Virus record (IMG/VR): IMGVR_UViG_3300006204_000001
DNA length: 64,000 bases
Strand: one strand, 5' to 3'
Source: a virus
Lineage: Duplodnaviria > Heunggongvirae > Uroviricota > Caudoviricetes
Position numbers and translations under genes: made by a program. Below, in pieces: positions 19,101-64,000 of this stretch (position 1 is its first letter; the number at the start of each line of letters is the position of its first letter). The notes under the pieces are model-generated. The model had not been told where the DNA came from, did no database searches, and saw only the letters and a list, made by a program, of their open reading frames with translations.

Positions 19101-21124
19101 AAATCAAAAATGTGTCATAAATAAATTAGTATCTGATATAAAAACTGTAGAACCGTATTCAACATTAAATCCAGTAGTAGAAATGTCTAAAACACATTCA
19201 ATATCTACTAAAGGTTTCAAAGGTTCTAATTCAGAGCATTCATATGATGAAGAAAAAAGATCATATGATCCATCGGCAGTAGGTAAAATAGCAATAACAA
19301 CATCGGCTAAAGTATTTGCATTGGCCGAATAAAACTTTTTGAATTGCGGGAAACTCCTTAGAGTCATTATTACTAAACTATTTATAGAAATATAGTAGTG
19401 GTCTAGAGTAATTAACTAGAGTATAGTAAAAAGATAATGAATTGGACAATCCGCATTTTTATTTTATAATAATAAAGAAACCAATTATTTGATATCTAAA
19501 GAAATATATAAAAGTATTAAACTCAAACGATCGAAAAAAATAGATTCAATGATATCGAATAATAGACATAAATATAGAAATATTATAAATGAAATTCAAC
19601 GACCATCGAAAGATAATAACTCAGAAGAAATAATAATAGAAGAAACAATTTTATTTGGATATGAGTTAGAATCGAATAGAGTAGATGTATTATTTAATCG
19701 AAGTGAAAAGGATAATAATTTATCATGATATGGTCTATATTTTATTGAATAAATAAAATTATTTAAAGGATGCAAATGTAGGTATTAATAAAAATTTAGT
19801 AGTAGAACCAACACTAGCTAATAGTAGAGGTTATAGAGAACAAGTAGATGATGTTGAAACATTAAAAGATGTAAATTTATTTTCTCCTGTAGAATTATTA
19901 ACTCCAGGAACTATATGTGTAGATGATCCAATTCGTTCTGCTATTGCTGCTAAACAATCAGCCCATGTTGTACCAGTGAACGATTCAATTCCATCATTAG
20001 TTTCAAATGGTTTCGACGAGGCAGTTCAGTTTTATTTATCATCTGATTTTGTTATTAATGCAGATGAGGATGGTAAAGTAATTGATGTAAATGATGAATT
20101 GGGATTTATTATGGTTGAATACAAATCTGGAAAGAAACGTGCTATAAATACAAATCCTGATATAGTACGTAATTTAGCAGGTGGATTTAATCTTGCTAAT
20201 AAATTAACTCCAGTGTATACTAAAGTAGGTCAAAAATTTAAAAAAGATGAACCATTAGCATACCATCCAAAATATTTCCAATATTCTCCTATTAATGGAT
20301 TACGATATTCATTTGGTCCATTAGCAAAAGTAGCTTTTATGTCTACATATAATACATATGAAGATGCAGGATTGACACATGAAAGTTTTTCTGATAGAAT
20401 GGCAACAGATATTGTTTATCAAGAAAAAGGTATGTTTAAACGTAATAACAATATTTTGAGTATGGTTAAAATAGGTGATCATGTTGCTATAGGAGATCCA
20501 TTAATAAAGTTTGATGTATCTGTAGAAGACGATATATTATCTTCATACTTAGTACATTTATCTGATGAAAATGCAGAATTATTAGCTAATGAGACTAAAT
20601 CAGAAATTAAATCATCACATGCAGGAAAAGTAATAGATATAAAAGTATATAGTATATTAGATCCATCTAACTTGTCTCCTTCTTTAGCTAATATAGTACA
20701 AGCATATTTTGATAAAGGAAATATGAAAAAAGAATATTTGGAACAATTTGATGGTACTCCAGGTATTATAAAAGCTGGCTATATGGTTACTGATACTACC
20801 GAGCCAATTAAGAATAGATATAATAGTATTAAAGGAAATAAGGGGGTAGATGTTTTAATAGAAATTTATATAGAACATAAAGATGTGATGGGTGTAGGTG
20901 ATAAGGTTGCATTATATGCAGCTAATAAACAAATTATTTCTGAAGTTATTCCTGAAGGATTTGAACCATATTCAGAAATAGAACCAGATGAGCCTATAGA
21001 TTTATTTACAAGCCCTGGAACAATTGCGAGGAGAATGACTCCAAGTGTAGAACCTATATCTGCCGCATGCAAAGTACTAGTATATCTAAAAAGAAAAATA
21101 AAAAAAGAAATCAAATATTCATAA
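16138..21124 (+). CDS. Multisubunit RNA polymerase beta-like subunit, join(16138..19308,19769..21124), about 1508 aa; probably virion RNAP (phiKZ gp178-like)
   Basis: Beta-type motifs in both exons (DIPKFQDNRFMLINGTRW; spliced ITTSA^DANVGI; YNTYEDAG; GDKVAL...NKQII; TIARRMTPS). Exon 2 is open from 19769, in frame with ORF 19976..21124. The virion assignment is inferred from the long N-terminal extension and from beta N and GDK regions being in one chain. Confidence 0.85.
19309..19768 (+). ncRNA. Group I intron (460 nt, no credible ORF) in RNAP beta
   Basis: P1 UCGGCU/GGCCGA with U.G at the splice site. P10 pairs loop AUUUGCAU with 3' exon AUGCAAAU. P AATTGCGGGAAACTCC, Q AATCCGCA, R TTCAACGACCAT, S GATATGGTC, terminal G at 19768. 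Splicing restores the frame. Confidence 0.9.
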
Positions 21125-21162: not shown

Positions 21163-21303
21163 ACTAAAAGATATGCTAAATATGAAATAACGACAATTGA
21201 TAATAAAACTCATTTCTATCATAATGATGAGAAAGTTTTATTAATACCTGGAATATAAAAATATAACCATGATGAAATAATTAATTTACATGGGCTACAA
21301 TAA

Positions 21304-21340
21304 AAAATAAAGGAGTGGTTTATTTCCACTCCTTTATTTT
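21304..21340. terminator. Bidirectional terminator
   Basis: AAAATAAAGGAGTGG-tttattt-CCACTCCTTTATTTT. Confidence 0.8.
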
Positions 21341-21354
21341 TATTTTTTTGGCTC

Positions 21355-24300
21355 TTAATTATCTGAAAGGATCGCTATAGAAATGTTTTCTAACGCGCTA
21401 AGATCTAATCGAATCGATTGATCCACCCTATTTATGAGCATATTAATAGGACTAAATCCTTCAAATAATTCCCAAAGCTCTTCGAGTGGTAATCCTAATT
21501 CATTCAAAACATCTCCGTCAATTTTTTATTAATTTCTCCACAATTAATTAGTTTTATTAAAAAGTTTTTTAGTATAAACAATGATGTAACAAAATAATAT
21601 TATAGGAGGAATAACTTATGTTAACTACTAATGAACTTTTAAACAATAAAAACACCATTTCTAATTTTTTAATTAATCGACCAATACCAGAAAAATATCG
21701 ATTGACAGTTGATAAGATTCCTTTTGGTTATATCTACTGCATTGAGAATAAATTAACAGGTATGAAATACATAGGTTCTACATACTCAGTATGGGCCGGT
21801 ATACAAAAGCCAAGACCTTATACTTCATTATCAAAACGAGCTTCACATTATTTATATGAATATAACAAAGCTATGAAATCTATTACAGCTGGTAACAAAG
21901 TTACATATAGACCTATTATACAAGCTATGATAGATAATGGTTTTGATAATTTTATTATGTATCCTATTTGTGAAACTACTCCTGCTAGTCATACTGGAAT
22001 GGAAAATTATTTCATAGATATTTATGATACTATTAAAAGTGGCTATAATGTTTCTAGAGCTGGTGTACCAACTGCAACTGGTCGAGTATTAACTGCTAGA
22101 GATAAGCAGATTAGATCAGAAGGTATTATAGCTGTTAATATGAATGATAAAAAACTTGTAGTATCTGAATCCATGAAATTATTAGGTGACTATATTGGTA
22201 CTACTAAAGATCAAATTAAAAATGGTAATCGTAATGGTAAACCAGTAAAAGGTTGGTTTATATTTTATTTAAATCCAGATAAACGACATGAAATATTATT
22301 TAAGAATGTAATCCATGATCAAAATAAGCGTAAACAAGAACGTCATTCTGATAAAGCAAAATCATTTTATATAGGACTATATAATGCAATAGAATTACAT
22401 CTAAATGAAACATATCATAGTGAATATTTTCCTGGTTTTGAAAGATTACCTAATCTGATATATACTGATTAATTATGGAATTATTAATAACATAGACCAT
22501 ATCTTTAGAGGAATATATATGCTACTATATATTCCTCTACTTCTGTTTAGATTTAAGGGGTGCCAATCCCACTTATTTTTCAATAAGCCCTACTCTACTA
22601 ACTATATACATCATATTCATTATAGTTATTTCGATGGTCGTTGAACTCATGTGCGTTTTAATGTGTCTGGAAAACATTTTGGACACAAAGATATTTTCAA
22701 TTCAAACTCTGCAGGTTTTGCCTGAAATTTAGTACCACATGGTTTATGTCTGTATTGTACTATACATTTAGGAGTATATAGTTTATAGTCTGATAATAAC
22801 TCATACTCTTCTGCATGTGGAATCTTTTTCAATTCTCTTAAATACATTTCCTTTGTGATACGTTGTTTTGGTTTGTTAGCTAATGTTGGTCTGTTTCCAG
22901 ATGCATCCAATTCTATGAATGCTTGTTGTTTCTCAGCTAATTTCTTTTTACGTGCAATCTTTTTTAATCCTCTTTCTGATGGGATTAAACTACGTGGTAT
23001 AGGCATATTATATTACCTCCTTTCTATACTATTATAGAATATATATTTAAATTGAAAATATTTTAAACGTACACTTTGCTGCGTCGATTGTATCTAATTA
23101 ATACCTTTTTACTATACCTTGAGATATTGCCTCTTGCCATTATTATATTACTATAATAATTTAGTAGTATTAATATTAACGATAGTTTCCCGCAATTAAA
23201 ATAATTTAAGCAGACCTCGACAGGCATGTTAAGTCTGCATTTAGCGTATTATTCATATACTATTATATTAGTATATCGAGCTTTTAACTCTGCCCTATAT
23301 CTCTATAGGATACTAGACTATATCTTCAATTAATATAATATTAATTGCCATTCATTTCCATAATTTATTTATGTACTCTACTAATTACATATTGTAACTT
23401 TGGATAGTCGTTGAAGCTAGTAATTTTATTTTTCTATCAATTCGTTTAACCATTTCAAAATTTTTATTATTTAAATCTAAATTAAGTATATCTAATATTT
23501 CAGCTTTATCATAACCTGCTAAAAGAAGTTCTTCAACATATAATTTCATATCTTTAGGATATTTTTCTTCTGGTATGTTATATAATTTTGATATATGTTT
23601 CCATCTTCTACCTTTCTTTATATCAGTTATATATTTTCTTTCAACACCAGTTAATTCTGAAATTATATTATTAGGAGTTCTTTGTTCTAGGAGTTTACAT
23701 ACTTCATGGATTTGTTTATCTGTATAATGACTTAAACTATTAGATGATCCAACTATAGCTGTTTTTAGTCCAGTCCTAAATGCATGCAATATATTTTCAG
23801 ATGTAGTAGACCATTCTAAGTTTAAATCTACATTAATATACTTTTTACCATTAATATGATTTACTTCTGGTTTATTATCAGGATTAGGAATAAAAGCTGT
23901 AGCAACAAACCTATGTATTCCTGGATGATATTGGCTACCATTAGGTCTAACTATAGTTGAATGTAAATATCCGTCTTTATCCATATATTTAGATAAAATC
24001 TTTTTAGTTATAGCATTTCTTACATCACCTATATTAGATACTTCATAATTAGTTTTCATACCATCAATTATGATTGGTTTCCATTCGAGATTAACTAAAT
24101 AGATATAATCTCCTATTTCAAAAATATTCATATAAATATCCTCCTGTATATCATATTTATATGAATAATATATAATTACTTTACCTGCGGATTGACTATA
24201 TATCTTTAACCTTTTTACTATACCTTCCACATTACTGGTTGCCACTACTATATCACTATAATAGTTTAGTAGTTAAAGCTCTTAAGCATCCATATATTAT

Positions 24301-25856
24301 ATAGATAGAATTTAGGCAATTCTCTTTCCCGCATAATTGAATGAATAGGCCGCCTTTTGACCTGGCAGGATTGCTGATGGTATTGCTAAACTATAATCAT
24401 CAGAATCTTTCTTTACCTTTCTAATTCGCATCAAAAGAATACTTCCAAATGTTATTGTAGGATTACGATTAATTATAATTTGCGGAGCATCTTCTTTTAT
24501 AACTCTACACATTATATCATATACATATGGATCGAAATTAAATTTTGATGCTAAAAAGTTTTGTGCTCTTGTTATTGTCCATCCTTTATCTTTTATAATT
24601 CTACGTAAAATGTTACCTTTATATATTTCAATAAATTGTTTATATGGTACATCTACTTCATCCATCTTTAAAGATGAATCTAATACAATTACGCTTCTTG
24701 ATGAGTAATTAAACTCGCCACCAAGAACATTTGCCCTAGTCCAACCATGCTTTCCATCAATTAATGAGAAATTTATCTGCCATAATTCATTTGCTCTCAT
24801 TTGAGCTTGATATAAATAAAGAGGTACTTCTATAGCAGTTGCTTTCTTCAAATTAATTGATATATGAGTTAAAGGATGAATATTTTTATCAAGTGGTGAG
24901 AAATAATACAATTATCTTATCTTTATATCTCTATAAACGTTGAGACTATATCTTTATAGAATCTATTATAGTAATCTATATCTTTCGTTTCCATTATATA
25001 TGTACTATACTCATATCATTATTGATATTTTCTATAGTCGTTGAACTATATTCACACAGCTACTGATTATCCCAAACTTATTTGATTTTACTATCCTATA
25101 TCCATTACGATATATGCTAACTTATATTATTACTAATATAATGCAGTTAAATAAGATAAAAGGAACTTCCAGTAATTATGAAAGAAAGAGCTATTATTTT
25201 CAACTCTCAGTTGTTATCCCCTGTGGTCTTAATACAGTAGAATATACAGGTAATTTAGAAGTCCATACTAAATCTTTATCCTGTATTAATGAATCTATTA
25301 ATTCTGCTTTCTGTTTTCTTTTACCTTTATAATAGGTCATAATCTCTTCATAATTTTCATAGAATTCTTGTAAACCTAAATTATGATATTTCAACATAGA
25401 TTTCTTAACTTCTATATCATCATTCTTATGTCTAATAATACCAGCGGATGTAATGATGTTTTCATTAGAGATTATATTCTCTAAAACTTTAGTAGATAAA
25501 GCAGACTTTAACCGGAAGAAAAAAAGCGGATTGATTATTTTAAACGGAGAAAAATTGAGCCACCCTGTATATAGAATATCTACATCACGATGTTCTACAG
25601 GCTCTCCACAAAATATACATTTTTCACCTTCAAACTCAGCTCCTATAGTTCTTCCGCATTTACAACGATATCTATCCATGAATTCATTAGCATCACCATA
25701 TGTAGTTCCATATCTAGGTGATCTAGGTCCATTCATATTTCGAATAGTTTTATCAACATCAGAGAATGGTATATCTGAAATTAAAAATCCTCTGTTATTA
25801 ATAATATCATTATAACATTCTGCCTCTAGATTCATCTTTTTAAATGAAATTCTCAT
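21355..25856 (-). CDS. RNA polymerase beta'-like N-terminal catalytic subunit, join(25856..25203,24908..24360,23244..23232,21521..21355), 460 aa; probably non-virion RNAP (phiKZ gp55-like)
   Basis: Zn finger RCKCG...CIFC, LPVYSTVLRP, GGEFNYSSRSVI, IINRNPT. Splicing yields IPSAILPG^LNADF^DGDVLN, the NADFDGD metal-binding motif. Exon lengths 654+549+13+167=1383 nt keep the frame. Confidence 0.88.
21618..22472 (+). CDS. GIY-YIG homing endonuclease, antisense inside intron P9
   Basis: GYIYCIENKLTGMKYIGST, conserved R (KRASHY), E (MENYFI), N (GYNVS), NUMOD1-like C-terminal segment. Own RBS AGGAGGA. Confidence 0.9.
   Translation: MLTTNELLNNKNTISNFLINRPIPEKYRLTVDKIPFGYIYCIENKLTGMKYIGSTYSVWAGIQKPRPYTSLSKRASHYLYEYNKAMKSITAGNKVTYRPIIQAMIDNGFDNFIMYPICETTPASHTGMENYFIDIYDTIKSGYNVSRAGVPTATGRVLTARDKQIRSEGIIAVNMNDKKLVVSESMKLLGDYIGTTKDQIKNGNRNGKPVKGWFIFYLNPDKRHEILFKNVIHDQNKRKQERHSDKAKSFYIGLYNAIELHLNETYHSEYFPGFERLPNLIYTD
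22647..23006 (-). CDS. Intron-encoded basic Zn-ribbon protein, no nuclease domain seen
   Basis: RBS GAAAGGAGG. YELLSDY...RHKPCGTKF...CPKC resembles Zn-ribbon repeats found in phage homing endonucleases. The stop codon abuts the R element. Confidence 0.7.
   Translation of the reverse strand: MPIPRSLIPSERGLKKIARKKKLAEKQQAFIELDASGNRPTLANKPKQRITKEMYLRELKKIPHAEEYELLSDYKLYTPKCIVQYRHKPCGTKFQAKPAEFELKISLCPKCFPDTLKRT
23245..24359 (-). ncRNA. Group I intron (1115 nt) carrying an HNH endonuclease
   Basis: Exon ends CCAGGU (short P1 AGGU/GCCU). Q AATCCGCAGG, R CTTCAACGACTAT, S GAAGATATAGTC, P9.0 GUAU/AUAC just before terminal G 23245. Confidence 0.88.
23385..24131 (-). CDS. NUMOD4-HNH homing endonuclease (I-HmuI-like)
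   Basis: YEVSNIGDVRN (NUMOD4), HRFVATAFIPNPDNKPEVNHING...NLEWSTTSENILHA. Start moved to ATG 24131 behind AGGAGGA. The 3' end overlaps the intron R element. Confidence 0.9.
   Translation of the reverse strand: MNIFEIGDYIYLVNLEWKPIIIDGMKTNYEVSNIGDVRNAITKKILSKYMDKDGYLHSTIVRPNGSQYHPGIHRFVATAFIPNPDNKPEVNHINGKKYINVDLNLEWSTTSENILHAFRTGLKTAIVGSSNSLSHYTDKQIHEVCKLLEQRTPNNIISELTGVERKYITDIKKGRRWKHISKLYNIPEEKYPKDMKLYVEELLLAGYDKAEILDILNLDLNNKNFEMVKRIDRKIKLLASTTIQSYNM
24909..25202 (-). ncRNA. Group I intron (294 nt, ORF-less)
   Basis: P1 GAGAGU/GCUCUU. P10 UAUUAUUU/AAAUAAUA. P ATTACTGGAAGTTCC, Q ATAATCAGTAGC, R GTTCAACGACTAT, S AAGATATAGTC, terminal G 24909. Splice gives TTES^YYFSP. Confidence 0.9.
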
Positions 25857-62522: not shown

Positions 62523-63919
62523 TTATTCTATATCTTCAATTATATCATCTGGATTTAATGTATATAATGTTACTACACTGACATGCTTTGCTTTCAATGC
62601 CAAATTTAAATCAGCATGTGAAATTTGTATACCAAATAATCCAGCATATTCAATATCCAACATATAGAATAGTCTACCTGCACACTTCTCACATATACAT
62701 TCATCTTTGCATGACATAGGTGATCTCATTTTAACTGTTTTACCTACATATTTATTTATATTATCTTTGGTTAATAATACAAGACTATCACCTTCTGCAA
62801 TATATGTATATAATACATTATCTTTATTCTTTTTAGTAATTTTTAATGGTATAAGATTTTTAGTACCGCAGTCTGTTCCTTCTGCTGCACATCTCATCAT
62901 CTGTAATAATGCCAAAATCTTCTTTCCAAGATATCCAGCATCAGCAGTACCAATAGATGCTGGGAATTGAGATGCTAATATACTATTAGCATGTGCAGGT
63001 ATATCATGTACATCTATACCATCCATAAATGATGTACCAATGAAATCATATTCATTAGTAATTTTATTTAATACTGCACCTTTGATAATAGAATTATTTT
63101 TATAATTATTAGCAAAATCAAGATCACCTGATAAATATAAATCCATACCAGGATCATCTTTTAATAATTCTTTTGCATAATCAATTAATTCTTTACTAAT
63201 ATTAGTCATAACATCTACATTACCACTAGCTAATTCTTTTTCATATTTTTTAATTAATTCTTTCTTTTTAGCTGTTATCTCTGGTAAGGGACTTAACATT
63301 TTTTCTGATAATGTATGTGCTAACATTCCATTCAACCAATAACCAAGATTATCTCGTCTATCTACATAAGCATTAAATTCTTTTTTACCTATTTTATTCT
63401 CTTGCCATAATTGAGCAATCAAATTATCAAGATCACCTAGTTTACCCTTATTTATAACTTCATTGATATAATGAGTTAAAGATATAACTCCTGATCCTTC
63501 TAATAAGAATTTATTCATAACGAATCTACCTATAGTAGTATCAATCTTTGGTTGATTATTATAGAAATAATTTGCAGGTACTACAAATTTATCCCATGTA
63601 TTATGTTTGCATTTAATTTTCTTAGTAGAATTACCATTAGTACAATCCACTCTATCAGCAAACATTTTTGTTAGAAAAGATAAAGTAAAATTATCTGGAT
63701 TCATATTTATATAAGTTAAATGATCTGATTCATTTACTAACTTAGCTTCTTTTCCATCTTTAGTTAATTCATAGAAAGAGTTAAATACCTCTTTAGCTGT
63801 TACTTTAGCATTAGTACCTGTTATAGCTAAACAACTCATTTTAGTACCCATAATCATTTCTGCTTCAGCATTAGCTTCATCAGAATATATACCTCTTTCT
63901 GATACCTGATCTCCATCAA
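62523..63919 (-). CDS. 3' exon of a second RNAP beta'-like catalytic subunit, probably virion RNAP (phiKZ gp180-like)
   Basis: The frame is open upstream of the track start to TT GAT GGA GAT CAG (F/x-DGDQ), then stop-closed with no start codon. Bridge helix TADAGYLGKK, DCGT, RSPMSC...CEKCAG Zn site. Confidence 0.85.
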
Positions 63920-64000
63920 CATATACAAGAAACTTTTTTATTTATATATTATATTTATCGAGCATATACAGTATAATAAGTGAAGAGATAGTCTACCAGT
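63920..64000 (-). ncRNA. Probable 3' end of a group I intron at the DF^DGD site (truncated by the window)
   Basis: G at 63920 precedes TTGATGG, the same phase-1 junction as the 21522..23231 intron. The core is not visible in the window. Confidence 0.55.

Follow-up and report, generated by a model that had tools for sequence, protein, structure and literature searches.

The window analysed here is a stretch of 64,000 nucleotides (nt) of the IMG/VR virus record IMGVR_UViG_3300006204_000001 (Duplodnaviria; Heunggongvirae; Uroviricota; Caudoviricetes). On its minus strand, between 25856 and 21355, it carries a gene for the N-terminal part of the beta' subunit (beta'-N) of a multisubunit RNA polymerase, apparently divided into four exons by three group I introns. 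The source record is a 289,059-bp genome with direct terminal repeats, rated complete and with 27% G+C. It comes from an uncultured jumbo phage of about 289 kb of the mouse gut, present in about 20 mouse/gut metagenome runs from 9 studies. An initial annotation of this DNA had predicted the four exons, and the sequences it gave were found on the minus strand where it had placed them; the end of exon 1, for which it gave no position, is at 25203. Read as 25856-25203 + 24908-24360 + 23244-23232 + 21521-21355, the gene gives 1383 nt and 460 amino acids (aa) without any internal stop, from a start ATG at 25856 to a stop codon that ends at 21355. We hold this exon structure, together with the explanation given below as a whole, with considerable confidence, the mechanism of the last ligation being graded lower.

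Exon 1 (25203-25856, an open reading frame, ORF) encodes residues 1-218 and ends in ...ACT GAG AGT (GAGAGT^tgaaaa; the caret marks a splice junction), and exon 2 (24360-24908) encodes residues 219-401 and ends at 24360 in ...ATC CTG CCA GGT. Both match phrog_2987, annotated as 'RNA polymerase beta subunit' (2e-16 for exon 1, 5e-29 for exon 2). Exon 2 also passes the Pfam cut-off for PF00623 (RNA_pol_Rpb1_2; 29.3 bits, cut-off 25.3), which gives it homology to Rpb1 domain 2, and it is 75-79% identical to relatives of 460 aa. Among named relatives the best is AR9 g270 (36% identical over exon 2), which carries the annotation beta' N-terminal subunit of the non-virion polymerase. On these similarities, the product is predicted to be the beta'-N subunit of a jumbo-phage non-virion multisubunit RNA polymerase, homologous to AR9 gp270.

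The third exon is a mini-exon of 13 nt (23232-23244; CTAAATGCAGACT), preceded by the terminal G of intron 2, that encodes Leu-Asn-Ala-Asp and the first base of a Phe codon. Exon 4 (21355-21521) starts at 21521 with TTGACGGAGAT (TT GAC GGA GAT ...), finishes the Phe codon and continues as DGDVLNELG... to the stop, encoding residues 406-460; it aligns with the C-termini of intronless relatives, of AR9 and of Listeria phage LPJP1. Thus, as had been predicted, the Mg-binding loop NADFDGD is absent before joining and is seen only in the spliced product, where the stretch across the junctions reads AILPGLNADFDGDVLNELGLPLEELWELFEGFSPINMLINR. The prediction that gene callers miss exons 3 and 4 was borne out too: ORF calls over the gene are fragments only, and here and in relatives they are truncated ORFs of 199-416 aa. 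Since the catalytic loop is invisible to gene callers, surveys of jumbo-phage polymerases will miss or misread active sites. Exon 4 holds the sole contiguous DGD motif (patterns D[FYWLIM]DGD or DGD+2) in six frames of the 289-kb genome, and no second copy of the motif or of exon 4 was found elsewhere in it. Because of this, and because the other beta' gene is also interrupted at this phase, the beta'-N gene is expected to be essential.

All three intervening sequences are confirmed as group I introns by their sequence features. In 3/3 introns, helix P1 has a U.G pair where the 5' splice site lies, and the P7/J8/7-P7' core has the form CAACGACYAU ... AGAUAURGUC, with a J8/7 of the AGAUAUAGUC type and the G-binding G-C pair in P7. 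Intron 1 (24909-25202, 294 nt, no ORF) has its internal guide sequence (IGS), GCTCTT, at 25191-25186, P7 at about 25039-25034 and P7' at about 24950-24945, and ends in ...aattG. Its P1 is GAGAGU/GCUCUU (6 bp, with the U.G pair), and its P10, UAUUAUUU/AAAUAAUA, forms 8 bp with the first bases of exon 2. Intron 2 (23245-24359, 1115 nt) has the IGS GCCT at 24350-24347, P7 at 23413-23402 and J8/7-P7' at 23324-23312, and ends in ...aatacG; its P1 is AGGU/GCCU (4 bp). Intron 3 (21522-23231, 1710 nt) has its guide CTGTCGA-GGTCTGC at 23223-23210, P6 at 23074-23065 with 22658-22649, P7 within 22640-22632, P8 at 22537-22508 and P7' (ATGGTC) at 22500-22495; its last base is A21522. The guide of intron 3 is a contiguous 14 nt, CUGUCGA-GGUCUGC, able to pair with the ligated GCAGACU-UUGACGG in a P1 of 7 bp (with U.G) and a P10 of 7 bp. 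P1 of the downstream intron had been said to use 7 of the 13 mini-exon bases, and in GCAGACU/GGUCUGC it does pair with exactly the last seven.

The mini-exon in intron-bearing and intronless relatives

A protein search with exon 2 returned dozens of 460-aa proteins from related uncultured phages, 70-79% identical. Against intronless 460-aa relatives, the spliced product aligns over residues 1-459 at 74-77% identity with zero gaps, including the NADFDGD region over which failure to align had been named as grounds for abandoning the gene model. It also aligns end to end with AR9 gp270 and with the intronless rpoC_2 of LPJP1. In the intronless relatives the catalytic region reads ...AILPGLNADFDGDVLN... 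(AIPSAILPG-LNAD-FDGDVLN) uninterrupted, and the sequence at the exon 1/2 junction, RPQG(I/V)T(T/V)ES^YYFSP, is likewise contiguous. LNADFDGD is invariant in 8/8 aligned relatives. Between exons 2 and 4 lie 2838 nt, in which five 13-mers preceded by G encode three residues, Asp and a final T (xxxD+T); only one of the five, at 23244, encodes LNAD. A chance origin of the mini-exon is excluded by this single LNAD-coding 13-mer in the interval and by the invariance of LNAD in relatives.

Relatives at the DNA level came from alignment-based scans, which gave 6 viral and 11 metagenome loci; exon 2 alone scanned against viral_contigs gave no match, nor did megablast of the region against INPHARED phages. 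One locus (L021) was left out of the comparison, as it seems chimeric after its intron. In two loci (L013 and L019) the catalytic motif is uninterrupted. One (L006) has intron 2 without intron 3, inserted exactly where it lies here (ggt^...acg^CTC AAC GCT GAC TTT GAT), and others carry only an intron of the intron-3 type: that of L024, at the same phase, is 303 nt long and ends in atatG^TTGATGG, and those of L004 and L014 include one, in L004, that lies 2 nt downstream (GACTTT^...G^GATGGAGAT). Both introns are found in L015, a 289-kb phage with a 13-nt mini-exon, CTTAATGCTGACT, in which GCA has become GCT and to which the IGS has changed to match, and in L008/L018 (292 kb), where the mini-exon measures 15 nt. 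In this set, L006, L008 and L015 have intron-2 homologs at the identical site, and intron 3 is homologous to introns in L004, L008, L015 and L024. The initial claim of a 13-nt exon flanked by two introns therefore stands, each intron being found alone or with the other in relatives.

The helices that define the junctions covary. P1 of intron 2 is AGGU/GCCU here and GGGU/GCCC in relatives, an A-U to G-C change that goes with the Pro codon. For intron 3, P1 is GCAGACU/GGUCUGC here and GCUGACU/GGUCAGC in L015, and P10 is UUGACGG/CUGUCGA here and UUGAUGG/CUAUCAA in L024 (C-G to U-A). P7 also covaries (GACCAU/AUGGUC versus GACUAU/AUAGUC), as do P3, P4 and P6 among five members of the intron-3 family; P3, P7 and P8 were annotated by eye, and the covariation of P3, P4, P6 and P7 was read by eye on the five-sequence alignment. 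An RNAalifold consensus on introns from which the ORFs had been deleted recovered P1, P4-like, P5 and P6 helices and did not recover the full group I fold. The mini-exon is thus real and not a chance match, because either intron occurs singly in some relatives and both occur in others, and the helices covary. Homology and covariation show that the predicted splice junctions are the functional ones, and we infer that the RNAs would be self-splicing.

The 3' end of intron 3

Intron 3 ends in ...AAUAAAAAA^UUGACGG (aaaaaA^TTGACGG). A junction after A21522 is required by the frame, by the invariant DFDGD and by the covarying register of P10. Contigs of four further runs from four studies (21300/21355-23128/23165) leave 21522-21530 unchanged while differing at 2-18 positions elsewhere over about 1.8 kb, so the A end is neither an assembly error nor a private mutation. 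A close relative, L011, whose GIY-YIG protein is only 62% identical, reads ...UUUUAUA^UCGAUGG and also lacks a G there; its contig ends inside the intron with the 5' half missing, which leaves the guide and the exact junction unreadable.

Between the core and exon 4, intron 3 has a further helix. Its 5' strand (22468-22490, minus strand) begins 4 nt past P7', and its 3' strand (21526-21548, minus strand) is followed by AAAA (21525-21522) and then by exon 4. The duplex has a predicted energy of -20.2 kcal/mol against a background of about -6.5 with a minimum of -15.6, and 0/300 shuffles reach it. L011 (-29.4 kcal/mol) and L015 (-14.7 kcal/mol) have closing helices at the corresponding position, though with other sequences, and the same loop layout, with diverged endonucleases and different helices, is found in L034 and in the virion beta' gene of the same genome.

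These observations suggest the following mechanism. Three mobile group I introns would have invaded the beta'-N gene, two of them landing 13 nt apart within the codons of the Mg-binding loop and leaving between them a mini-exon that supplies Leu-Asn-Ala-Asp and the first Phe base. Each intron would line up its own exons on its internal guide sequence, and once all three were removed the mRNA would encode 460 aa, including the canonical NADFDGD. In intron 3, the helix of 23 positions would close a P9-like loop of about 0.9 kb that contains the antisense GIY-YIG gene, returning exon 4 to the core. As a working inference, ligation would still take place at A^UUGACGG, guided by P10 and the closing helix, and would be inefficient or assisted. 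That a phage group I intron ligates its exons at a 3' site after A, positioned by its 7-bp P10 together with a long helix that closes a 0.9-kb loop, is a proposal we make tentatively, with nearly as much confidence as doubt. That a phage intron which is conserved and apparently functional should lack the terminal G is more surprising than the mini-exon. The initial annotation had counted three ribozyme reactions gating the enzyme; the three group I introns are there, and the third is non-canonical, with its 3' splice site after A.

Several points weigh against the proposed splicing. Evidence from RNA was sought among the runs that contain the stretch, and none of these is on record as RNA; one with an uncertain label (run X4, 'RNA?') behaved as DNA contigs, with contig joints at repeated intron sequences, 0 splice junctions and no contig skipping 22490-21522. 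The Rfam group I model (RF00028) gave 0 matches at its gathering score over the whole window, nor was there a group I match at E<=1 over 6 kb; a 351-nt search gave a partial match to P8-P7'-P9 of intron 1 (24923-24994; 23 bits, E 7e-4, cut-off 50). This failure is likely attributable to the large ORF inserts and the 27% G+C. Intron 3 has no omega-G; one is present in intron 1 (aattG) and intron 2 (atacG), and 6/6 readable homologous introns end in G (L004, L008, L015, L024, L034 and the virion-polymerase intron). The G-binding pair in P7 of intron 3 is canonical and unchanged, and with no terminal G, textbook chemistry would therefore predict very poor ligation at A21522. Finally, G21519, 3 nt downstream, would as a splice site yield an in-frame product, NAD-Y-GD.

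The alternative built on that last point survives best, and we still judge it unlikely. Intron 3 would end at G21519, the first base of the GAC codon, and exon 3 would be joined to ACGGAGAT (predicted junction GACT-ACGGAGAT), giving 459 aa with the reading LNAD-Y-GDVLN. G21519 restores the canonical terminal G and keeps the frame, L011 (..atcG^ATGGAGAT) would likewise give Tyr (TAT, TAC here), and with a 3-nt spacer the P10 pairs A-U, C-G, G.U and G-C are still possible. However, this product loses the middle Asp of the D-x-D-x-D Mg triad, invariant in 8/8 relatives, in AR9 and in LPJP1, and a multisubunit polymerase without that residue should be inactive. Moreover, the register of P10 and its covariation with L024 and L015 put the exon start at UUGAYGG, stacked directly on P1, and in homologs that do have a terminal G the splice falls at G^TTGAYGG.

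A group I intron that has lost its terminal G normally cannot carry out the second splicing step, and the record is a metagenome assembly and not an isolate. Both facts would fit a G-to-A change that disabled ligation and left a crippled or dead beta'-N gene in a decaying or helper-dependent lineage. We find this very unlikely, as the same 3' end occurs in the four further runs from different studies despite the 2-18 differences elsewhere, and L011, with a diverged GIY-YIG gene and a different closing helix, is also without G. The exons, guide and closing helix are intact, and the genome holds no second copy of the motif.

Two polypeptides could also be imagined, an N-part ending near LNADF through splicing at G22491, after P7' (predicted junction GACT-TTATTAAT), and a separate C-part of 54 aa starting from AUU/AUC before DGD. 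G22491 lies about where related introns end (in L004, 5 nt past P7'), and the window and L011 both have an in-frame Ile codon (ATT and ATC) directly before GAY GGA GAT. No conserved ribosome-binding site precedes the Ile codon, though, and the tail is not conserved, splicing at G22491 giving ...NADF-INNSIINQYISD and then a stop here, and ...NAD directly followed by a stop in the L011 equivalent. The Mg-binding loop would be split between two chains, of which we know no case, and the 7-bp P10 and the conserved closing helix would go unexplained; this alternative is extremely improbable.

Each of these three alternatives conflicts with several observations. The idea that the 13-mer is a chance match within one large intron or a non-intronic insertion spanning 24359-21522, which has in its favour only the absence of an Rfam match at the gathering score, is effectively refuted, as a product without the 13-mer loses four invariant residues and runs out of frame, two separate group I cores with their own P1 flank it, either intron is found alone in relatives, and the 2838 nt hold a single LNAD-coding candidate.

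Splicing order and comparison with known systems

It had also been argued that the upstream intron must engage the mini-exon, and that splicing would therefore be ordered or interdependent. Part of this holds: intron 2 can form a P10 with the mini-exon, and that P10 is a single C-G pair, a weak 1-nt contact here and likewise in three relatives. For this reason, ordered or interdependent splicing remains a conjecture. Competition for the mini-exon by base pairing would be minimal, because intron 2 pairs with one base and P1 of intron 3 holds bases 7-13, and either order of splicing is sterically conceivable. Skipping of the mini-exon would join CCAGGT to TTGACGG and cause a frameshift, which would be lethal. 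Introns 2 and 3 share only one stretch of 66 nt (82% identity), which makes a hybrid-ribozyme route to skipping, of the Twort type, less likely.

Short exons between group I introns are already known. According to PMC10136302, orf142 of phage Twort has three group I introns with a 23-nt exon between introns 2 and 3, the 23S rRNA gene of Coxiella burnetii has a 34-nt exon between two such introns, and hybrid-ribozyme exon skipping has been proposed for the similar Twort introns. In these cases as in ours, a phage or bacterial gene has a short exon with a group I intron on either side, and the same question of inclusion versus skipping arises. Compared with Twort, the exon described here is about half as long (13 nt), codes for active-site residues and would cause a frameshift if skipped; the flanking introns of Twort are highly similar, whereas here the likeness is confined to 66 nt at 82%. 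Shorter exons between group I introns occur in placozoan cox1 (1 nt; PMC5436844) and in a fungal mitochondrial gene (3 nt; cited in PMC8971849). As here, a second intron was inserted beside a first and a conserved catalytic residue is restored by splicing only; unlike here, these micro-exons are organellar, shorter, and neither viral nor in a polymerase. At 13 nt, the mini-exon is the shortest that we could find in phages or bacteria, and its place is within an active-site motif. As a 13-nt exon of which 7 nt enter P1 of the next intron, it offers a natural test of how skipping is avoided when two group I ribozymes have a substrate in common.

That introns at the Mg-binding motif are known in jumbo phages, as the initial annotation stated, is confirmed by AR9/PBS1 g270, an orthologous gene with a group I intron that carries an HNH/NUMOD ORF in the same motif. 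AR9 differs in having one intron, after DYDG^D, 8 nt downstream of the intron 3 site, with no mini-exon and no antisense gene, and in the terminal G of its intron. That jumbo-phage polymerase genes can contain introns is established, e.g. for PhiPA3, in which homing-endonuclease competition has been shown at gp210 (PMC11620839), and introns are abundant in gut jumbo phages (PMC12880540).

For the A end of intron 3, our literature searches found no example of a phage or bacterial group I intron without terminal G. The closest parallel is the hexacoral ND5-717 group I intron, which has no terminal G and a very large insertion and whose exons are perfectly ligated in vivo (PMC6545197). Unlike intron 3, it is mitochondrial, has its insertion in P8 and is believed to rely on either host factors or back-splicing. 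If the proposed ligation is true, intron 3 would be the first bacterial or phage group I ribozyme known to work without the terminal G, and it would do so in an essential gene, next to a 13-nt mini-exon. An intron ending in A with a canonical G-binding helix, stable across samples, would be a test of whether the terminal G is dispensable outside mitochondria.

The placement of the endonuclease gene in intron 3 also has partial precedents. In the T4 sunY/nrdD intron, I-TevII lies downstream of the core, between the core and a remote 3' splice site. The ORF of that intron is treated in PMC3984707, and antisense homing-endonuclease genes occur in nuclear ribosomal DNA (rDNA) group I introns at position L2066 (PMC9548176). 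Like intron 3, both place an endonuclease gene in a peripheral loop; in rDNA it is on the opposite strand, and in sunY it lies between the core and the 3' site. Unlike them, intron 3 combines both features, in a phage protein gene and with a putative GIY-YIG enzyme, and the arrangement occurs twice in one genome, in both beta' genes.

Intron-borne genes and neighbouring features

Intron 2 carries an HNH/NUMOD4 homing-endonuclease ORF (23385-24131, minus strand, 248 aa from ATG), with matches to NUMOD4 (28.3 bits, cut-off 23.4) and to the phrog_59 HNH endonuclease family (3e-38); HNH_3, at 13.6, is under its cut-off of 24.8. In the P6 loop of intron 3 lies a sense ORF of 119 aa (22647-23006, minus strand), Cys-rich with a CxxC...CxxC pattern. 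It gave no Pfam match and no detectable nuclease domain, only a weak match to phrog_559 (5e-7). Counterparts 74% identical stand in the same place in L007 and L008, and L004 has a homologous ORF. The product may be what remains of the DNA-binding part of an endonuclease, or it may act like a maturase.

The putative GIY-YIG homing-endonuclease gene of intron 3 (21618-22472, plus strand, 284 aa) is antisense to the polymerase gene, between P7' and exon 4. Its motif, GYIYCIENKLTGMKYIGS, is visible, and it matches phrog_5123 (2e-8); the score with Pfam SegE_GIY-YIG, 15.4 bits, falls short of the cut-off of 25. The protein has 67 homologs among the sequences found. The antisense placement recurs in L011, L015, L034 and the virion-polymerase intron of the same genome; homologs in L011, L012 and a 31-kb JGI contig are also on the opposite strand from their neighbours, which may reflect an antisense habit of the lineage. 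The interval 22490-21522 was considered as an intron of its own and rejected: it has no core motifs, and outside the antisense ORF only 8 and 96 nt remain. A scan for sigma-70-type promoters around the GIY-YIG gene gave 15 matches versus 11.3 in shuffled sequence, not above expectation. Seen from the plus strand, the P8 hairpin of intron 3 (22506-22539) is terminator-like and lies about 35 nt past the GIY-YIG stop, so it could serve both strands. In run X16, a 1-nt deletion at window position 21973 would put the GIY-YIG frame out of register; this may be endonuclease decay in some strains or a contig error.

The clade as a whole is an intron hot spot. The beta'-N gene has at least 8 insertion sites, near residues 110, 161, 218-225, 288, 368-370, about 392, 401 and 405/406, and individual genomes of the clade (e.g. 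L018, L029, L023, L015) carry up to four or five introns in it. One insertion falls at a conserved NRNP^T motif (truncated proteins P0064, P0076 and P0079). The virion-polymerase beta' gene, which lies at 63774-64000 of the window and beyond (genome 183389-186308, minus strand; phrog_2986, 1.5e-75), is interrupted at the nucleotide phase seen for intron 3, GCC GAT T^...tatG^TT GAT GGA GAT. Its intron is paralogous to intron 3, has an antisense GIY-YIG gene after P7' and, unlike intron 3, ends in G. With both beta' genes hit at the same phase, the clade is a good system for studying homing-endonuclease competition.

In the 289-kb genome, a simple scan for P7/P7' motifs found at least 12 group I cores, several of them near-identical, and metagenome contigs break at these intron repeats (window 23079-23165 and 24909-24997). 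One further core, of the GACCAU/AUGGUC type, lies on the plus strand at 19597-19790 in the RNA polymerase beta gene, in an intron that ends in ...tatttaaagG. Since this core sits just upstream, an ORF of 382 aa at 19976-21124 is read as a terminal exon. Between the convergent beta (plus) and beta'-N (minus) genes, a 16-bp hairpin flanked by A and T runs (21303-21341) resembles a bidirectional terminator.

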